From Zunongwangia sp. (GTDB lineage: Bacteria > Bacteroidota > Bacteroidia > Flavobacteriales > Flavobacteriaceae): a DNA stretch of 64,000 nt. The position numbers were made by a program, and so were the translations under genes. Position 1 is the first letter of the stretch; every line of letters begins with the position of its first letter. Shown here piece by piece: positions 28,065-40,681 of the stretch. The notes under the pieces were generated by a model that saw nothing but the letters and a program-made list of their open reading frames with translations, was not told the DNA's origin and did no database searches. The DNA is taken from positions 25,158-89,157 of the forward strand of contig NZ_JBLXIB010000012.1 of assembly GCF_048269745.1 (NCBI RefSeq), written 5' to 3'.

Positions 28065-28823
28065 TTATTTAAAATTCTCTCTTAATTTCATGAATTCTTG
28101 TTCTAGAAAATTTAGTTTTTGTTCTAGTTCTGTATTTTGATTTTCCGGAAGATGTTTTAAAAAACAATACTTTACACACCACATTTCTTTTATGTCATTT
28201 AATTTAATCTCAAGATCATCGATGTTTTTGTTTGTAGCCTGCAAGGTTATTTTTTCTGAAGTTTGATAAAATTTGCGTAGTAAAATTTTATGGGTAGTAA
28301 CTAATAAGATTAAGCTACTATTTTCAATTTTAGAATAATCTTCAGTTTCAATTTTCTCACCTATAATTACGTCTTTAGGAAAATATCCCTTATCGTTATT
28401 GGTCATTTCTAAATTAGATATCAAGTAACCTCTGTATTTTTTTTCTCGGTTTAATGGTAAATGTAATTTAGGAAGATCTTCTATAAAATGTGGTTTATCA
28501 AAATATAAAACATAATCTGTTTCAGTTTTAGGAGTAATGCAGGGAATTCTAGCGAATTTTTCTTTATCGAAGCTTCCCTGTAATGCTAGATCGTCTTTAA
28601 ACTTCAAAAGTTTATTTACAGTAAGTTCTTTGGTTAACAAGTCATCTATGGTAATGCTAAAATGGTTAGCTATTTTTATAATAGTTTCTATCCTAGGTTC
28701 ACTACGTTCCTCCTCGTAAGCACCCAAAGTACCACGCTTTAGTTCGAATAATTCGGCAAAAGCCTGCTGACTTAATTTCTTTACATTTCTTATTTTCCTA
28801 ATATTCTTACCGAAATACGACAT
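28065..28823 (-). CDS. XRE-family helix-turn-helix transcriptional regulator with a C-terminal LexA/S24-like beta domain (the catalytic Ser is not evident)
   Basis: N-terminal HTH_3 (IRKIRNVKKLSQQAFAELFELKRGTLGAYEEERSEP...IANHFSITIDDL). The C-terminal roughly 150 aa resemble an S24-type fold, but the GDSM serine is not conserved. Divergent from the PspA-flotillin cluster. Confidence 0.6.
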   Translation of the reverse strand: MSYFGKNIRKIRNVKKLSQQAFAELFELKRGTLGAYEEERSEPRIETIIKIANHFSITIDDLLTKELTVNKLLKFKDDLALQGSFDKEKFARIPCITPKTETDYVLYFDKPHFIEDLPKLHLPLNREKKYRGYLISNLEMTNNDKGYFPKDVIIGEKIETEDYSKIENSSLILLVTTHKILLRKFYQTSEKITLQATNKNIDDLEIKLNDIKEMWCVKYCFLKHLPENQNTELEQKLNFLEQEFMKLRENFK

Positions 28824-29115
28824 TTTTTGCTAAAATTATTTGCAATAATAAAATTTAGTTGTATATTTATCTAACAATATTAGCTAATAGAATTGATAAT
28901 TACTAATTTATTTGGTTATATCTTGATTTTAGTTTTAAAATCTTGAACTTGCTAAATAAATTAGCTTGACGTAGATATTTTTAATTTTAACCTAAACAAC
29001 CAATGATAACAGTAATAATTACTAGCGTGATTTTGTTAATAATACCTTAAAATAGATTAGATTTTTTGTATTATTATACCAAGTTATTTAACACCAATCA
29101 AAAAATACTTTCTAG

Positions 29116-33040: not shown

Positions 33041-33082
33041 TCTAATATTTAAAGTAATTTGATTTAGATTTAGAGCTATGTT

Positions 33083-33103
33083 ATCCCGGGCTTACCCCGG
33101 GAT
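33083..33103 (+). promoter_or_regulatory. GC-rich intracistronic hairpin between the flotillin gene and the giant ATPase gene
   Basis: atcccggg-ctta-cccgggat forms an 8-bp G/C stem in an otherwise AT-rich spacer, followed by a weak T-rich tract. It could be a partial terminator or a processing site. Confidence 0.4.
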
Positions 33104-33173
33104 CTCATCCTCTTTGTTTTCTTACGTTTTAGGAATTACTAAAAATCAACCCTAACCCTTACCATAAAACCTA

Positions 33174-36100
33174 ATGAATACTAACAAAGAAAAACCGATA
33201 CAAAAAGATGCTTTAGATGGTGGGACTTATGAGATTATTCGTAAGCGTCTTAACACTCATAAATCTGATTTACAGGAACGTCTTAACACATTAAATGATG
33301 CCCGAAAAACGGTTTTTGGTTCTCTTGAAACACAGTTAATTGCAAATAACCGCATTAGTACCGAAAATAACTGTGTTGCCAGGGATATAATTTCGCTGGG
33401 AAATACCTGCATTTTCGGTTATAACGTGCATTTTGGTTTGCGTACCGATATTAAGCTCTCTGATGTTTTTAGTATTTACAAATTCGATAATGAACATTTT
33501 GAGTCGGTTTCTTTAGAGCTTTTGGAAGATGAAACATTTAAAACCGATTTTTCAAATTTATATAAGTATTATCGAAATACAATTTTTACCAAGTTTGCCA
33601 AGATAGGGAATTACCTGCATATGGTATTTCAGCTTAGCGATAGCGTAACCGATATAAAAACCTTTAAATGGCTTATCAAGGATAATACTCTTACCTATAT
33701 CGATAATCGTAGCGAGCATGAGTTTAAATACCCAAAACAGTATCAATTTAACTGGCAGGAAGCTACTAGAGATATGCAACGTTATGGCGAACATCCACAT
33801 GTGGCGATTTTAGATAAAGTGTTTGTAGAAACCATTGGTGGCGATCTAACCATTAAAATTGAAGATAATACAAACGATGGAATGGGAATCTATTCCGAAC
33901 CTGTAGATTATAAAGATCAAACTTTGGATGATGGCCAGATTCGCTTTGCTGATTTAGGGAATCTGATTGTGTTGGAAATTAAACCATTTCAGGAAGAAGC
34001 ACGCTATTTTGTGTATAATCATAAAATGCAGGAAGTGCAGAAAATTGATTCCATCAAAGAAACTGCTATATTATTGCCCGACGATCAGGGGATTATTTTT
34101 CCTAATGGTTATTATTTGCAAACCGGAGAATTTCATTTGTTTTCTAACGAAGTTCAATCTTGGAAATATCAGGAAACCATTAGTTCTCCCAATGGAGAAG
34201 ATTTTTTATATATTTTCTATTCGCCATCCAAAAGCGCTTATCTGCTAATGGATTATAATATGATCGAGCAGGAAATAAAAACGCCTATTGTTTGTGGCGG
34301 CTTCACGATTTTACCCGGTGGCGAGCTTTGTTATTTTAAAGCCGAAGACGAGCAAACTAAACATCATATGATTCAGATTTGGCAGACGCCATATCTGGAA
34401 GGCGATATAATGCCTTCTGAACATCAGGATTCGATGTTGTATAAAATCGGAAATAAAGATATTGTAAAAGCAATGGCCGAGGCTAACGAGCTTCTCACTT
34501 TGCTTAGTAAAGAAGATAATTATGATGGTTTATATGCGGATATAGCAAAATCATCAAAAAATATTTTAGATGCCTTTTATTGGTTGAATGAAAAGGAAAC
34601 TGCTGTTTTAAGTGAACCTTTAAAAGAAATAAATATAGCTGCTAATGCAGCAATCGATGAGTTTCAGAAAGTAATTCAACTTAAGAAAAATGCTGAAAAA
34701 CAAACCCAGGAAATTCAGCAAAAAGCACAAGAGCTTTTCAGTAAAATAAAAAGCACTTCATTTAAAAACATTAATGAATTTGTTGTATTACTCTCTCAAT
34801 TACGAGCCTTGCGCGGCGAGGTTATTGGCCTTTATGAAATTAGATACGTAAACGAAGAATTTATTAAGTCTCTTGAAACTGAAATAGCTGAACAAACAAC
34901 AAAAATTTCAAGGCGCTGCGTCGAATTTTTACTGAATGATAAAGCATTGCAGCCTTATCATGATAAAGTTGATGAGAAGAAGCAACGATTAGCCGATATT
35001 AGCAAAGTTCTTGAAGCTAAAAACTTAGAAGATGAGGTAACCCAGATAGCGATTGATCTGGAAATGCTTATCGATATTGTATCAAACCTTGATATTGAAG
35101 ATACATCACATTCTACCAAAATTATCGATAATATTTCGCTAATTTTTGCAACCATAAACCAGCTTAAAGCAGCAATTAAGAATAAGAAAAAGTCGCTTGG
35201 AAGTAAAGAAGCTAAAGCCGATTTTGCAGCTCAGTTAAAACTTATAGATCAGAGTATTATTAATTATCTGGATATTGCTTCTACTCCTGAAAAGTGTGAT
35301 GAATTTCAAACAAAAGTCAGCATACAACTGGAAGAATTAGAAGGGAAATTTGCCGATTTTGAAGAGTTTATTACTGAAATAATCGAAAAGCGAGAAGAAG
35401 TTTATAATGCTTTTGAAAGTAAAAAAAGCGCTATTAACGAAAAGCGAAATAAAAAAGCCATTGCGCTGCAAACTGCTTCGGATAGGATTTTAAAAAGTGT
35501 TGGCAAAAAAGCTGAAAGTCTACACTCGGTTTCAGAAATTAACGGGTATTACGCTTCAGATCTTATGGTTAACAAACTTCGCGATATTGTGGAGCAATTA
35601 CGTGAGCTAGATGATAGTGGTAATGCCGAAGAAATTGAAACTTCCCTTAAAACCAGTAGGGAAGATGCTTTACGAAAGCTTAAAGACAAACAGGATCTTT
35701 ACGAAGATGGCGAAAATATCATCAAACTTGGAAATCATAAATTTGGGGTAAACCGCCAAGATTTAGATTTAAGTATTGTTTTTAAGGATGATCAATTATT
35801 TTATCATTTAAGCGGTACCGATTTTTATCAGGAATTACAGAATGATATTTTAAATAATAGCCGAGAATATTGGGATCAGGAATTTATTTCTGAAAATGAT
35901 TCAGTGTACCGAGCATCGTTTTTAGCTTTCAAAATTTATAAAAATAATGCGTTTGAAAAACTTTCAGGATTAACAGAAGCTGAATTGCTGAAGTTAATTC
36001 AGGAAGAAAGCAGTAGCAATTATGCTGAAGGTTATATAAAAGGTGTTCACGATCTGGATGCGGCTAAAATTTTACAAGTTTTAGTACAAAAACATCAAGA

Positions 36101-38042
36101 TTTAGGCATTCTAAAATATAGATCTGAAATTCGTGCTTTTGCGAGATTTTTTTGGAATCAGTTAGATAAAGATTCCAAACAAGGTTATAACAATTCTATT
36201 AAAGCATCAGGCCAGGTTTTAAAATATTTTCCAAATACACGGGAATATGACTTTTTAATTCAGGAGTTAGAACAGGTAATAAGCGAATTTGGACAAAATT
36301 CAGGTTTATTTTCTCCGGAAATGAGTTTAGAAATCGCTCAGTATCTATTTGAAGAATTGCAAAGTGATGATCGTTTTGTAGTAAGTGGTTTAGCAAAAAA
36401 GCTTGCTGAAGATTTTCAGCAGATGTTGAATAAGGAAAAGGCAGAAAGTCAATTTCAAAATAGTATAGAAAGTTTACACTCATATTCTGCTAAAATTAGG
36501 TTGGTTAAACAATGGCTTCAGGCTTTTGCTAAATCAAAATTAGTAGAAAATCAGATAGGTTATATTGATGAAGCGGCTTGTTGTATTTTGTTTCCGCAGC
36601 AAACTCCGGAAGTGAATCATATCAATCCTTCAACAGTAATTTCAGGTTTAAAAGGCGACCATAAATATATCGAAAATGGGCAATATCAGTTCGATTTTCA
36701 TGAGTTTACGCAAAAACTTCAGTTGTATTTTAATTATAGTGTTCCAGCCTTTCAAGCGTTTAGAAAGGCAAGACATCAGGTAACCGAGGAGTTGAAAGAC
36801 CAATTGAAATTAGACGAATTTAAGCCCCGAGTTTTAACTTCTTTTGTTCGAAATAAATTAATCGACCAGGTATATTTTCCGCTTTTCGGAGAAAATTTAG
36901 CCAAGCAATTGGGAAGTGTAGGGGAGAACCGCCGTACCGATCGTATGGGAATGTTGTTGTTAATTTCGCCACCGGGATACGGGAAGACCACCTTAATGGA
37001 GTATATCGCAAACCGGCTTGGTTTGATATTTATGAAAATTAACGGCCCGGCGATTGGCCACGATATTACTTCGGTAGATCCAGATGCAGCCACTAACTCG
37101 GCTTCCCGAGAAGAATTAAAAAAGCTGAATCTGGCTTTTGAAATGGGAAATAATGTGATGTTATACTTAGACGATATTCAGCATTGTAATCCCGAATTTT
37201 TACAGAAGTTTATTTCACTGGCTGACGGAACTCGAAAAATCGAAGGTATTTTTAATGGAAAACCTAAAACTTACGATTTACGCGGAAAGAAATTTTGCGT
37301 GATTATGGCAGGAAATCCGTATACAGAAAGTGGTGAGAAATTTAGAATTCCCGATATGCTTTCTAACCGAGCTGATATTTATAATTTGGGAGATATAATT
37401 GGCGATACCGAAAGCTTGTTTAAATTAAGTTTATTGGAAAATTCGTTAACCTCTAATCCGGTCTTACACCAATTAAGCTCTCGAAATTTTGATGATGTGT
37501 ATACACTTGTGGATCGTGTAGAAAATAATTCGGATGTCGGAGAATTAAAGGGAAACCATACGCAACAGGAAATTCAGGATTATAAATCTGTTTTAGAAAA
37601 AGTACTCAGTATCCGTGATACGGTTTTAAAAGTGAATGCTACTTATATTAAATCGGCTGGAATGGAAGATGAGTACCGAACCGAGCCTGCATTTAAGCTT
37701 CAAGGATCATATCGGGATATGAATAAACTGGTTTCTAAAGTGGTGCCAATTATGAATGATAAAGAACTAAATAGTTTATTATTATCCCATTACGAAAACG
37801 AATCGCAAACGCTTACTACAGCTGCAGAAGCTAACCTTTTAAAATTTAAAGAACTGCGCGGCGATATTTCTGAAAATGAACAAGCACGTTGGATAACTAT
37901 TAAAGAAACATTTTTAAAGAATAATAAATTGAAAGGTTTTGGTAACAAAAATGAAATGGCACAGGTATTATCGCAAATGATGATGTTTAGCGAAAATCTG
38001 GAAGGTATTAAAGAGGTTTTGCAACGCGGTTTTGAAAAATAA
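33174..38042 (+). CDS. Giant (1622 aa) cytoplasmic protein: N-terminal globular region, a central coiled-coil of about 700 aa, and a C-terminal MoxR/AAA_5-like P-loop ATPase
   Basis: No signal peptide or TM segment. Walker A LLLISPPGYGKTT (nt ~36966-36992). Walker B VMLYLDDIQH (nt ~37161-37181). Sensor-1/AAA_5-like FCVIMAGNPY (nt ~37299-37322). The next segment, RIPDMLSNRADI, resembles the MoxR LPEAQLDRF region. The central region is K/E/Q-rich with heptad periodicity. Confidence 0.7.
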   Translation: MNTNKEKPIQKDALDGGTYEIIRKRLNTHKSDLQERLNTLNDARKTVFGSLETQLIANNRISTENNCVARDIISLGNTCIFGYNVHFGLRTDIKLSDVFSIYKFDNEHFESVSLELLEDETFKTDFSNLYKYYRNTIFTKFAKIGNYLHMVFQLSDSVTDIKTFKWLIKDNTLTYIDNRSEHEFKYPKQYQFNWQEATRDMQRYGEHPHVAILDKVFVETIGGDLTIKIEDNTNDGMGIYSEPVDYKDQTLDDGQIRFADLGNLIVLEIKPFQEEARYFVYNHKMQEVQKIDSIKETAILLPDDQGIIFPNGYYLQTGEFHLFSNEVQSWKYQETISSPNGEDFLYIFYSPSKSAYLLMDYNMIEQEIKTPIVCGGFTILPGGELCYFKAEDEQTKHHMIQIWQTPYLEGDIMPSEHQDSMLYKIGNKDIVKAMAEANELLTLLSKEDNYDGLYADIAKSSKNILDAFYWLNEKETAVLSEPLKEINIAANAAIDEFQKVIQLKKNAEKQTQEIQQKAQELFSKIKSTSFKNINEFVVLLSQLRALRGEVIGLYEIRYVNEEFIKSLETEIAEQTTKISRRCVEFLLNDKALQPYHDKVDEKKQRLADISKVLEAKNLEDEVTQIAIDLEMLIDIVSNLDIEDTSHSTKIIDNISLIFATINQLKAAIKNKKKSLGSKEAKADFAAQLKLIDQSIINYLDIASTPEKCDEFQTKVSIQLEELEGKFADFEEFITEIIEKREEVYNAFESKKSAINEKRNKKAIALQTASDRILKSVGKKAESLHSVSEINGYYASDLMVNKLRDIVEQLRELDDSGNAEEIETSLKTSREDALRKLKDKQDLYEDGENIIKLGNHKFGVNRQDLDLSIVFKDDQLFYHLSGTDFYQELQNDILNNSREYWDQEFISENDSVYRASFLAFKIYKNNAFEKLSGLTEAELLKLIQEESSSNYAEGYIKGVHDLDAAKILQVLVQKHQDLGILKYRSEIRAFARFFWNQLDKDSKQGYNNSIKASGQVLKYFPNTREYDFLIQELEQVISEFGQNSGLFSPEMSLEIAQYLFEELQSDDRFVVSGLAKKLAEDFQQMLNKEKAESQFQNSIESLHSYSAKIRLVKQWLQAFAKSKLVENQIGYIDEAACCILFPQQTPEVNHINPSTVISGLKGDHKYIENGQYQFDFHEFTQKLQLYFNYSVPAFQAFRKARHQVTEELKDQLKLDEFKPRVLTSFVRNKLIDQVYFPLFGENLAKQLGSVGENRRTDRMGMLLLISPPGYGKTTLMEYIANRLGLIFMKINGPAIGHDITSVDPDAATNSASREELKKLNLAFEMGNNVMLYLDDIQHCNPEFLQKFISLADGTRKIEGIFNGKPKTYDLRGKKFCVIMAGNPYTESGEKFRIPDMLSNRADIYNLGDIIGDTESLFKLSLLENSLTSNPVLHQLSSRNFDDVYTLVDRVENNSDVGELKGNHTQQEIQDYKSVLEKVLSIRDTVLKVNATYIKSAGMEDEYRTEPAFKLQGSYRDMNKLVSKVVPIMNDKELNSLLLSHYENESQTLTTAAEANLLKFKELRGDISENEQARWITIKETFLKNNKLKGFGNKNEMAQVLSQMMMFSENLEGIKEVLQRGFEK

Positions 38043-38050
38043 AATGTTTG

Positions 38051-38088
38051 AAATAGCCAAATCAACCGATTTGGCTATTTATTTTTAG
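38051..38088. terminator. Strong rho-independent terminator, bidirectional between convergent genes
   Basis: Perfect 13-bp inverted repeat aaatagccaaatc / gatttggctattt with a 4-nt loop, followed by atttttag. Confidence 0.8.
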
Positions 38089-38191: not shown

Positions 38192-38680
38192 TCATTCTAT
38201 TCTCTTCTTATTCTGATCAAACAGGCCTATTAAAATACTATTTCCCTGGTCGTCTACTTTTATTCCACCATATTTTGCAATTTCAAATTTGTAGGAGTTT
38301 CCTTCTTGAAAAAAGTATGATTCTGCACCAAAATGGACATTTCGAGATCCATTATAACTATATTTTATCAGGAATTCATCATTATTAATCGGTGTTTTTT
38401 GTTCTTGAATTCGGACTTTTTTAGCAACACCATCTTCTTTTAGTTTAACCACACAAAATCCTCTTTTAGAAATACTATCTATATTAATATTGTTTGAAAT
38501 AGCATACCTTAAATTCATATAATCACCTTGCATTAGTGAACGAGGATCAACAGGAGCTAATTCTAATAAAATTAGCTGTCCATTAGCTAACAATTTTTCT
38601 TTCTGAATAATGGAATAGTTGAAGAAAACTAGTAAAACAATAAGATTAACTAATAGGATTATCCACTTATATTTTTTCAT
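38192..38680 (-). CDS. GDYXXLXY domain-containing protein
   Basis: Signal/TM N-terminus and the literal motif GDYMNLRY. 162 aa. Overlaps the upstream gene by 14 nt. Confidence 0.75.
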   Translation of the reverse strand: MKKYKWIILLVNLIVLLVFFNYSIIQKEKLLANGQLILLELAPVDPRSLMQGDYMNLRYAISNNINIDSISKRGFCVVKLKEDGVAKKVRIQEQKTPINNDEFLIKYSYNGSRNVHFGAESYFFQEGNSYKFEIAKYGGIKVDDQGNSILIGLFDQNKKRIE

Positions 38681-39743
38681 TAGAATTTAATTTTTTAATA
38701 ATGAATAAATAGAATAAAAGAAATATAATGCCAGATACAAATAAGATGATTGATTTGGATAATAAGGTAAAATTTAGAGAGTAATAATATTGTGATATAA
38801 AATAAATAAAAGCAAGTATCCCTATCACCACTCCACTTTTATAATTAACTAAAAAGCTCAACAAAATAATAGCAATTGCTCCAGAAATAGTAGGGGAAAA
38901 TATTGTTGGAGCTAGTATTGATATTGTTAAAATGTATACTATACTTTTAGTTTTAACAGAAGTTATTTCATTTATTTTTATAATCATATTTGTTAAATAC
39001 ATGATTACTGAAATAATTATGATAGATGATAACCAAATATAATTTAGAGAAATTGGTAGTAATCTTTTTTCTGTAATTCCAATAAGGCCAAATAGTAGAG
39101 AGAATATCATTCCAATTCTAATTGGGTTATAAAGTTTAGATAATTTTTTATGAGACGAAATTATCTTAGCTTCATTTAAAAATACATATACTAAAATTAT
39201 ACTAGTAATGGCAATGTATAAATGAACTAAGTTGTAATAATTATTAAAAGCGATCAGAAAAAGAAAGCTACCACTAATTGTAATTATTGAAATGAATGAT
39301 AAAATATAATTCTGGCAAATGAACAAACAGGATAAAGCTATACAACTAATGGATAATGAAATGATATTTTCATTAATTCCAATTTCTGATAACCCAAGAG
39401 AGTATAAAATAAAACCTGCAATGTATATTGAAATACTAAATGTATCTATAATAATTTTATCGTACCATTTATTTAAACAAATAGCCAAAATTAGAAATAC
39501 TGTCCCAAATATTAGTAAACTATACTCAGAGTCATAAAGCCCTGAAAGGATATAAAAACCAATTAACGCTAAAGTGGCTAAAAAGCCTCCAAAAATTGAA
39601 AGGATTTTAATAGCTAAACTAGATTTATTTTCAGCTAGATTAGCATACTCTTCTAAAATAGCATTTTCATCACATTCAAATTCTGAGCCTTCAGAAAACC
39701 GAATCTTATCTAATAAAAGTTTCTTATTCGTTAATTTTTCCAT
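38667..39743 (-). CDS. DUF4401-type polytopic membrane protein
   Basis: 358 aa with about ten TM helices. It is the middle gene of an overlapping three-gene minus-strand operon of the kind that usually reads DUF2157-DUF4401-GDYXXLXY. Confidence 0.5.
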   Translation of the reverse strand: MEKLTNKKLLLDKIRFSEGSEFECDENAILEEYANLAENKSSLAIKILSIFGGFLATLALIGFYILSGLYDSEYSLLIFGTVFLILAICLNKWYDKIIIDTFSISIYIAGFILYSLGLSEIGINENIISLSISCIALSCLFICQNYILSFISIITISGSFLFLIAFNNYYNLVHLYIAITSIILVYVFLNEAKIISSHKKLSKLYNPIRIGMIFSLLFGLIGITEKRLLPISLNYIWLSSIIIISVIMYLTNMIIKINEITSVKTKSIVYILTISILAPTIFSPTISGAIAIILLSFLVNYKSGVVIGILAFIYFISQYYYSLNFTLLSKSIILFVSGIIFLLFYLFIIKKLNSNEKI

Positions 39744-40681
39744 TTCTTTTGAAGATCAATAAGGTTTTTAATTACCAATGTTATACTCCCTATAACGAAT
39801 AAACTAATCAATAAAAATGCATTTATTTCATTTGATATTTTTAAAATAAATGCAGAAATTATAATAACAATACTAAAGGGCACGATTGAAAGATAAAATC
39901 CGCTTTTTACCTTAAGTCCATATTTAATTCCAGCAAAATATAGTACTGTGGTAATTATAAGTAATACCAATAATGAGTTTTGATTTTTGCTGAAAATACC
40001 AATTACAATACCTATTGTGGTAAAAGATACACTGGCTAATGCTATTAAGTTTGAAAACCATACCGGTGGTTTAATACTAGTATTGATTTTATGACCAAAT
40101 AATGAAATAAATAAAAACAATACATTAATCACGAAAAGTAAAGTATACGTAAAAACATCTGACCAGTTATATGCAACTTGTTGAGAATATAGTATGAATG
40201 TTGTATTTACTAAAATGATATATAAAAGCCATAGTGGCGCAAAATTTGAGATAAAAACCCATATCGAAATAAAGATTGTCCAGCCCAAGAAAAAATCATA
40301 AGCATTAGCTCCCGTTTGATAAACTTGACCGAAAACAGCGAATAGTACACCTACCAAAACTGATGCACTCGTTAGCACTATATTTTTTATATTTAAACTT
40401 AATTTTGAGAATACAACAACTAAGGTTAAAATTAAAAGTAACCCCTCGATTAATCCAATTTTCAAAAACTTATGTAAGTCAGCCCAGTTATAAGCAAAGA
40501 AAAAAATAAGTCCAGCTGTTGTAAAACCTATACCTAAACTTATAAAAAAAAGTTCAAGAAATTTATGCCAAGATTGTTTACTACTATAAATATTTTTTTT
40601 CAGAATAGTATCAATTCCTTTTGCTGACCAATTACTATGTCGAGAGATGATTTGAATATCTTCTCGGTTAATTTTTTTCAT
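39731..40681 (-). CDS. DUF2157-type polytopic membrane protein
   Basis: 316 aa with about eight TM helices. First gene of the trio. Its stop overlaps the next gene's start. Confidence 0.5.
   Translation of the reverse strand: MKKINREDIQIISRHSNWSAKGIDTILKKNIYSSKQSWHKFLELFFISLGIGFTTAGLIFFFAYNWADLHKFLKIGLIEGLLLILTLVVVFSKLSLNIKNIVLTSASVLVGVLFAVFGQVYQTGANAYDFFLGWTIFISIWVFISNFAPLWLLYIILVNTTFILYSQQVAYNWSDVFTYTLLFVINVLFLFISLFGHKINTSIKPPVWFSNLIALASVSFTTIGIVIGIFSKNQNSLLVLLIITTVLYFAGIKYGLKVKSGFYLSIVPFSIVIIISAFILKISNEINAFLLISLFVIGSITLVIKNLIDLQKKWKN

Follow-up and report, generated by a model that had tools for sequence, protein, structure and literature searches.

Coupling of SPFH-type membrane scaffolds to AAA+ machines is an established theme, exemplified by HflK/C with FtsH and by prohibitin with m-AAA. 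A CesT/Tir-PspA-band-7/flotillin-YqiJ/YuaF-AAA+ operon was described computationally by Ravi et al. 2024 (mSystems, PMC11237479), who also noted abbreviated operons without PspA and inferred a role in sub-membrane assembly dynamics; the description takes up one sentence, leaves the AAA+ head unclassified and reports no experiments. Here we analysed a stretch of 64,000 nucleotides (nt) from Zunongwangia sp. (assembly GCF_048269745.1, contig NZ_JBLXIB010000012.1, positions 25,158 to 89,157; hereafter the window), which carries an operon of the same architecture that includes the gene for a giant AAA+ ATPase of 1622 amino acids (aa). The window locus does not differ in kind from the operon of Ravi et al. 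2024 and is its orthologue. That is, the giant is an orthologue within a widespread, catalogued family, encoded in an operon already described computationally, and not a new discovery. What is new beyond that description is that the head of the giant is nearest to the MoxR/dynein/midasin group, that flotillin and not PspA is its near-universal neighbour, and that the protein contains a separate globular middle domain. We see an even chance that the giant is an ATP-driven remodeller and the dedicated partner of a membrane scaffold pair composed of the flotillin and a YqiJ-like protein with three transmembrane segments.

Gene neighbourhoods were compared in the best 80 loci from five phyla (Bacteroidota, Planctomycetota, Verrucomicrobiota, Desulfobacterota and Clostridia), in which open reading frames were called, clustered and compared by tblastn, and 63–64 of which were informative. 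In 61 of 64 loci, the gene immediately upstream of the giant gene encodes a flotillin and has the same orientation, and a gene for a three-transmembrane protein is found near the giant gene in 57 of 63, the order always being transmembrane protein, flotillin, giant. The operon includes a PspA gene in 32 of 63 loci, each of them from Bacteroidota, and PspA is missing from every examined locus of Planctomycetota, Verrucomicrobiota, Desulfobacterota, Clostridia, Actinomycetota and Deinococcota. Confined to Bacteroidota as well are the CesT-like gene (28/63), which always occurs together with PspA, and a regulator gene of the helix-turn-helix (HTH) type (30/63), which is always divergent from CesT-PspA; the full five-gene order of the window recurs in 28 related loci. 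No neighbour beyond these and no gene downstream of the giant is conserved in the 80 loci. Annotated records add Pseudomonadota, Actinomycetota and Deinococcota as three further phyla with the flotillin-giant pair, for instance a Streptomyces record in which a 'flotillin family protein' is followed by a 'DNA repair ATPase', and records of Deinococcus, Proteus, Vibrio, Photobacterium and Halomonas; elsewhere, the syntenic upstream genes are annotated 'flotillin family protein' or 'SPFH domain-containing protein'. Identities between phyla amount to 36–52% for the giant and 40–60% for the flotillin, by which measure both proteins are unusually conserved. Because of these frequencies and the annotated records, flotillin emerges as the near-obligate partner of the giant, whereas PspA is a recurrent add-on. 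The initial annotation, made from the letters of the window and without database searches, had raised the question whether orthologues always neighbour flotillin and PspA genes, which nearly holds for flotillin and does not hold for PspA.

A second PspA-containing arrangement, distinct from that of Bacteroidota, is present on plasmid pQBR103 of Pseudomonas fluorescens SBW25 (L081/L083, record positions 84437-97641). There, a YjfI-PspA-polyamine cluster leads into the pair in one co-directional run, comprising YjfI, PspA, a rhomboid protease, DUF2491, DUF350, DUF1190, a glutathionylspermidine-synthase-like protein, a hypothetical protein, the SPFH protein and the giant ATPase. This run unites a polyamine/PspA cluster of the E. 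coli yjfIJKLMC type with the flotillin-ATPase pair on a megaplasmid. In some other loci (L004, L019, L029, L068 and others), the flotillin gene is separated from the ATPase gene by one to four extra small open reading frames of 80–240 aa, which are for the most part mutually unrelated; one small cluster of ~146 aa recurs in five loci.

The giant itself has 5316 homologues at E≤1e-5. The best 120 of these are all 1599–1651 residues long and colinear with the query, of which they cover 99–100%, and the closest, a Zunongwangia profunda protein, shares 91% identity with the giant along its entire length; an exact-sequence lookup of the giant returned no entry on record. Since full-length homologues of like size abound, the giant is not a fusion artefact, a worry voiced in the initial annotation. 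At least 589 species genomes carry the family, a search with the head alone yielded 363 representatives (50% clustering) at E≤1e-30, and distant members have the domain order of the giant. Members from Planctomycetota, Desulfobacterota and some Verrucomicrobiota (loci L020, L023, L033, L036, L058, L065 and L079) are 200–400 residues longer; three such proteins that were scanned (P0147, P0168 and P0196; 1927–2036 aa) have the same domains plus extra sequence without Pfam match. In the giant, PF12458 (DUF3686) matches over profile positions 1–448 of 448 (E=5.5e-180; 599 bits, cut-off 25), and Pfam AAA and AAA_5 both exceed their cut-offs. Thus, the earlier statement that the protein belongs to no characterised family is correct as far as experiments are concerned, as we found no paper testing it, and incorrect in that the family is catalogued as Pfam DUF3686/DUF7902 and at NCBI as 'DNA repair ATPase'. 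With a Kyte-Doolittle mean of 1.6 over 19 residues as the criterion, the giant has no transmembrane segment, since no window reaches this value (maximum 1.23), in agreement with the initial annotation. It is a soluble, cytoplasmic AAA+ ATPase of the DUF3686 family, predicted from its sequence to be catalytically competent.

Conservation of individual residues was assessed in an alignment of 65 diverse family members with 28–48% overall identity. The Walker A, Walker B, sensor-1 and IPDMLSNRADI motifs are all present as first annotated, and they are invariant or nearly so (Table 1). The head displays the features of the AAA+ superfamily, that is Walker A, Walker B, a sensor-1 polar residue, a candidate arginine finger and a helical lid with a candidate sensor-2 arginine; the latter two roles are assigned by position to R1399 and R1514, respectively. 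In an AlphaFold2 model of residues 470-1622 (mean predicted local distance difference test score (pLDDT) 81.6, predicted template modelling score (pTM) 0.67), helix 2 of the head is preceded by a conserved loop of 18 residues (1291-1308), a β-hairpin of the kind inserted in helix 2 in the MoxR/AAA_5 group is not modelled, and four helices separate strand 5 from the sensor-2 helix.

Sequence methods do not place the head within the superfamily, because the scores of Pfam AAA, AAA_5 and AAA_22 are nearly the same and AAA_3 (PF07726), the model specific to MoxR, remains far below its threshold: it reaches 12–14 bits (E 0.06–0.2; cut-off 27) in three of six diverse heads, gives no match in the other three and is not among the Pfam matches of the giant itself. 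Searches of the PDB with the sequence of the whole giant and with the 65-sequence profile returned only P-loop-level matches to RuvB, p97 and Rix7 (E ~1e-3) and no solved structure of any relative. In fold comparison, the head scored 14.9 with the MoxR protein CbbQ2 (238 of 267 residues, 3.7 Å), 14.8 with the dynein motor, 14.3 with midasin and 14.0 with the MoxR protein NorQ (227 of 254 residues, 3.6 Å), followed by ClpA/ClpB (12.7-13.1) and Vps4 (10.0-10.6); the superpositions comprise ~89% of the CbbQ2 and NorQ chains, lids included, which, with the four helices ahead of the sensor-2 helix, is suggestive of the extra helix and lid arrangement of the pre-sensor-2-insert clade. Foldseek likewise gave the best target-normalised TM-scores for NorQ and CbbQ2 (0.50-0.57), with RuvB close behind, where per-domain matches alone were used, the top long dynein alignments obtained with the 1153-residue model being meaningless (TM 0.13). 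In addition, a pre-sensor-1 β-hairpin, as expected of the MoxR/AAA_5 group, is part of the model. From fold comparison, Foldseek and this hairpin, the MoxR/AAA_5 reading of the initial annotation is therefore upheld at the level of fold, albeit by a small margin.

Members of the MoxR/AAA_5 group (pre-sensor-2-insert clade) are thus the closest structural neighbours of the head. With the MoxR proteins CbbQ, NorQ and RavA it shares the spacing from Walker B via the hairpin and the sensor-1 NP to xxxNRAD/DRF, and a G-S-x-R sensor-2 motif. However, the giant is not a canonical MoxR protein: MoxR proteins are single modules of ~250-350 aa with a VWA/MIDAS partner, whereas the giant is five times longer, has D-D in its Walker B motif and fails to match AAA_3. 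As already remarked in the initial annotation, it also lacks a VWA partner, as none of its neighbours in the window matches VWA and no such gene is conserved in the 80 loci; a MoxR gene was not present among the related loci fetched either. Dynein and midasin/Rea1 (Pfam AAA_5) differ in that six AAA modules are concatenated per chain, as compared to one in the giant, so that a ring would need several giant chains; a MIDAS domain, a microtubule-binding stalk and a long antiparallel coiled coil, which are features of dynein and midasin, are not seen in the giant.

The almost constant position beside a flotillin gene makes it probable that the giant is an energy-driven partner of the flotillin scaffold. 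That this partner acts as a remodeller is suggested by several lines of evidence: Walker A, DDIQH, MAGNPYT, R1399 and R1514 are all intact and do not vary in the alignment, the head is closest in fold to MoxR-class rings that remodel substrates and to modules of dynein and midasin, flotillin and the YqiJ-like protein are the only neighbours approaching universality, the flotillin-giant pair persists with high conservation across eight phyla, a CesT-like/PspA dyad was added to the trio both in Bacteroidota and, independently, on pQBR103, Ravi et al. 2024 arrived independently at sub-membrane assembly dynamics, and coupling of SPFH scaffolds to AAA+ machines has precedents. In such a machine, the C-terminal MoxR/dynein-type modules would assemble into a ring, and the N-terminal β-propeller, the helical arm and the middle domain would dock on the cytoplasmic part of the flotillin assembly. 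ATP hydrolysis would then pull on a segment of the scaffold via the conserved and presumably pore-facing 1291-1308 loop and the 1355-1368 hairpin, whereby the flotillin oligomer would be assembled, opened or dismantled. In Bacteroidota, addition of the CesT-like chaperone/PspA module and the XRE-type regulator may couple the machine to the PspA (ESCRT-III-like) membrane-stress response. Architecture, conservation of the motifs, neighbours in fold and linkage of the genes are shown by the analysis; the oligomeric state of the ring, the identity of its substrate and the direction of remodelling are what we infer here. HflK/C-FtsH and prohibitin-m-AAA resemble this arrangement in that an SPFH membrane scaffold is coupled to an AAA+ ATPase, but their ATPases are membrane-anchored, cage-enclosed proteases of the classical AAA type, whereas the giant is a soluble member of another AAA+ clade and lacks a protease domain.

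Several observations weigh against the remodeller. Three loci (L028, L047 and L058) have no adjacent flotillin gene, and a literature search on DUF3686, PF12458, flotillin-linked 'DNA repair ATPase' and flotillin together with MoxR found no experimental or structural work, the relevant literature being confined to the 2024 comparative paper and general reviews on SPFH or ESCRT proteins. In the Walker B motif, the catalytic Glu is replaced by Asp, and hydrolysis could therefore be slow or regulatory. Moreover, adjacency of genes proves co-function and not which of the proteins is the substrate. In its fully specified form, in which a ring of MoxR/dynein-type heads with six propeller-tipped arms is dedicated to opening, dismantling or loading flotillin/YqiJ and is coupled to PspA in Bacteroidota and some Proteobacteria, the proposal is tentative, and we would sooner expect one or another of its details to be wrong.

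PspA is a member of the ESCRT-III superfamily, and encoding of the giant beside it makes a role in polymer recycling conceivable. The giant could accordingly act as a functional analogue of Vps4, that is as a PspA-directed disassembly machine that recycles PspA polymers, and flotillin would merely provide the membrane platform. Presence of PspA together with the CesT-like chaperone in the window operon and in half of the informative loci, as well as the independent joining of a PspA dyad to the trio on pQBR103, would fit this idea. Moreover, bacteria seem to lack a Vps4-like ATPase, and for bacterial PspA none is known, according to a 2025 review (PMC7619361). Vps4 is an AAA+ ATPase like the giant, but it belongs to the classical AAA clade, carries an MIT domain and has no pre-sensor-1 hairpin; an MIT domain was not detected in the giant by the Pfam scan. 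As about half of the loci also have no PspA gene in the operon, among them all those examined outside Bacteroidota in the phyla listed above, we regard a primarily PspA-directed function as unlikely.

The regions that precede the head bear on a further reading. The initial annotation had found no recognisable motif in residues 1-430, which is in fact where DUF3686 resides. An AlphaFold2 model of residues 1-480 (pLDDT 89.2, pTM 0.88) consists of a helix followed by ~28 strands, by which the domain is predicted to be a divergent β-propeller. The ~700-aa coiled-coil stalk formerly assigned to residues 440-1150 is not borne out by the model, which yields ~365 residues of broken helices (477-842) and then a globular middle region of ~290 residues. 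In the helical region, K, E and Q account for 29% of the residues, a crude heptad scan detected periodicity in few patches only, and the longest helix comprises ~52 residues, corresponding to roughly 8 nm as inferred from a rise of 1.5 Å per residue. The middle region, aa 849-1139, has no Pfam match. Its all-α domain contains a G957-x-H959-D960-x-D962-A963 motif (nt 36042-36062), which is invariant in the 65-sequence alignment and could be a binding or catalytic site. Y954, E907, R913 and R987 of the middle region are conserved as well.

The earlier picture of a motor or ruler protein thus leaned on a coiled coil that turns out to be half as long as claimed and split into short helices, and a stalk-plus-head architecture with a long stalk is not supported by AlphaFold. 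A related idea is that the giant serves as a passive or mechanical tether or ruler. Its head would then be a nucleotide-controlled switch and not a remodeller, and flotillin platforms would be connected to some other structure in the cytoplasm by way of the propeller and the helical arm. The large multidomain build, which combines a helical spacer with a binding domain at its end, would suit such a role, dynein and midasin rank high in the fold comparison, and the D-D variant of Walker B could mean slow hydrolysis. However, the short and broken helical part offers no long stalk, and the invariance of the candidate arginine finger, the candidate sensor-2 arginine and the pore-loop regions argues for an active ring, which renders a tether improbable.

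Even less can be said for a part in an anti-phage or conflict system that would trigger abortive infection through an NTPase and scaffold proteins of the membrane. Members of the family reside on megaplasmids in several lineages, an XRE-type regulator adjoins the operon, and MoxR-type ATPases reportedly occur in known conflict systems. Yet PADLOC gave only a 30-residue P-loop match of the giant to IetA (E=1.4e-4) and nothing for the three-transmembrane protein, flotillin and CesT-like proteins, no match was found in 50,697 phage records, and effector-like domains are lacking. The window is otherwise ordinary chromosome with housekeeping genes such as those for PFK, chorismate synthase and transporters, and high sequence conservation and fixed gene order contrast with the variability typical of defence islands. 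We therefore consider involvement in defence very unlikely. Finally, a DNA-repair ATPase of the SMC/SbcC/Rad50 type, which is backed by inherited names alone (Pfam DUF3686 'ATPase involved in DNA repair', NCBI 'DNA repair ATPase'), deserves hardly any credence, as it is already contradicted by domain order, Walker A and B being located within a single C-terminal AAA+ domain (aa 1265-1334), at a distance of 60 residues, and not split between the ends as in the ABC-type heads of SMC/SbcC/Rad50, whose N- and C-terminal halves are joined by an antiparallel coiled coil, and as the giant has a propeller-like N-terminus, no SMC, SbcC or Rad50 match in NCBIfam, no conserved repair-gene neighbour in the 80 loci and no paper backing the name in the literature searched. 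Thus, homologues do fall into a family known as DNA-repair ATPases, which the initial annotation had named as an outcome that would refute its reading, but in name only; sequence, fold and context lend no support to this name, which we suspect to be inherited from weak coiled-coil matches.

Table 1. Features of the giant ATPase gene and its operon in the window (nt positions; aa, residues of the encoded protein; AF2, AlphaFold2).
Feature	Position	Strand	Remarks
XRE-type HTH regulator gene, 252 aa	28065..28823	-	divergently transcribed; Pfam HTH_3 E=6e-10
GCTAA-N5-TTAGC palindrome cluster	28829..28965		divergent promoter between HTH and CesT genes; sites at 28829, 28870 and 28951
CesT/Tir-like chaperone gene, 131 aa	29116..29511	+	Pfam CesT_Tir_1 E=3e-55
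PspA/IM30 (bacterial ESCRT-III) gene, 237 aa	29523..30236	+	Pfam PspA_IM30 E=1.6e-43
Three-transmembrane protein gene, 234 aa	30242..30946	+	three hydrophobic segments; putatively YqiJ/DUF1449-like (NfeD-type partner of SPFH proteins)
Flotillin-like SPFH protein gene, 692 aa	30962..33040	+	N-terminal transmembrane segment, Band 7, long E/K/A-rich helical region, conserved C-terminal block
GC-rich hairpin AUCCCGGG...CCCGGGAU with U-rich tail	33082..33105	+	between flotillin stop and giant start
Giant AAA+ ATPase gene, 1622 aa	33174..38042	+	single uninterrupted open reading frame; DUF3686 family (NCBI name 'DNA repair ATPase')
DUF3686 domain, aa 32-469	33267..34580	+	N-terminal; helix 16-48, then ~28 strands; β-propeller-like
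All-helical region, aa 477-842	34602..35699	+	12 helices of 10-52 residues (AF2, DSSP)
DUF7902, aa 590-674	34941-35195	+	inside helical region; PF25472 E=1e-25 (Pfam scan)
Middle globular region	35718..36590	+	small β unit aa 849-887 and all-α domain aa 913-1139; pLDDT mostly 85-93 (AF2, DSSP)
AAA+ head	36609..38036	+	small β unit and long helix aa 1146-1211; α/β core aa 1261-1403; extended helical lid to aa 1621
Walker A SPPGYGKTT, aa 1265-1273	36966..36992	+	S1265 to T1272 invariant in 65 sequences
Walker B VMLYLDDIQH, aa 1328-1337	37155..37184	+	D1333-D1334 invariant (D-D, not D-E), then invariant Q1336 and H1337
Pre-sensor-1 β-hairpin, aa 1355-1368	37236..37277	+	AF2 strands 1355-1360 and 1363-1368; R1354, G1358 and G1362 conserved
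Sensor-1 strand FCVIMAGNPY, aa 1374-1383	37293..37322	+	G1380, N1381 and P1382 invariant
IPDMLSNRADI, aa 1392-1402	37347..37379	+	P1393, M1395, L1396 and R1399 invariant
LQGSYR, aa 1509-1514	37698..37715	+	Q1510 to R1514 invariant; start of lid helix in model
Terminator-like hairpin	38051..38080	+	13-pair stem and T run, 9 nt past giant stop

Placement of the giant in an ESCRT-III/flotillin operon, as put forward in the initial annotation, is confirmed: the CesT-like, PspA, three-transmembrane, flotillin and giant genes are adjacent and co-directional in the window. Residues 1-222 of the flotillin match Band_7 (E=1.2e-13), with a transmembrane segment at 1-34, whereas the whole 692-aa protein has no Pfam match even at E≤10, seemingly because its E/K/A-rich region trips the composition filter of HMMER; phmmer of the SPFH part against the PDB gave no match. 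Automated annotation can miss such flotillins, and the Hymenobacter orthologue is labelled 'hypothetical protein'. The three-transmembrane protein of the window has no Pfam, NCBIfam or PDB match of its own; at its position, the Hymenobacter operon carries a gene annotated 'DUF1449 family protein'. The C-terminal domain of the HTH regulator is poorly conserved, and its Hymenobacter orthologue is annotated 'LexA family transcriptional regulator'. A LexA-like self-cleaving regulator was considered and rejected, as there is no conserved Ser/Lys dyad; the regulator is probably not self-cleaving. A link to the convergent downstream cluster of predicted membrane proteins (GDYXXLXY/DUF4401/DUF2157; 38192-40681, minus strand) was rejected as well, this cluster being absent in all 80 related loci.

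Several elements in the operon may have regulatory functions. The palindrome GCTAA-N5-TTAGC has seven matches in the window, four of them within 310 nt, and in 30 related loci its density is 4.8 per kb in the divergent region as compared to 0.034 per kb elsewhere, i.e. ~140-fold higher. It is present in loci L001-L015, L030, L034, L037, L039, L042, L046 and L048-L051, and absent from the Hymenobacter and Sphingobacterium loci. Judged by this distribution, the palindrome is probably the operator of the HTH regulator and is put forward as a candidate. One conserved copy, at 28656-28670 in the window, falls within the HTH coding region, where it is translated as ANHFS, and may be no more than a coincidence of coding. 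Between flotillin and giant, the intergenic RNA (33041-33173) folds with -26.4 kcal/mol (z = -2.57), and the GC-rich hairpin therein may be an attenuator; if read-through attenuation occurs at this site, as it might, less ATPase than flotillin would be made. The hairpin downstream of the giant gene marks the end of the operon.

By what means bacteria build and recycle their flotillin platforms and PspA polymers is a standing question, and the giant family represents a concrete and conserved candidate for the energy-consuming step, as it is present in so many species genomes, fixed beside flotillin in eight phyla and equipped with intact ATPase motifs. The question is directly testable, since point mutants can be defined (K1271A, D1334, R1399 and R1514) and the candidate operator could be used to find the inducing signal. 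Orthologues are available in tractable hosts, namely Proteus mirabilis, Vibrio campbellii, Pseudomonas fluorescens with pQBR103 and Flavobacteriia. If the remodeller reading is true, the giant would supply the energy so far missing from accounts of SPFH and ESCRT-III-like membrane dynamics in bacteria, following a Vps4-like logic while being evolutionarily unrelated to Vps4.

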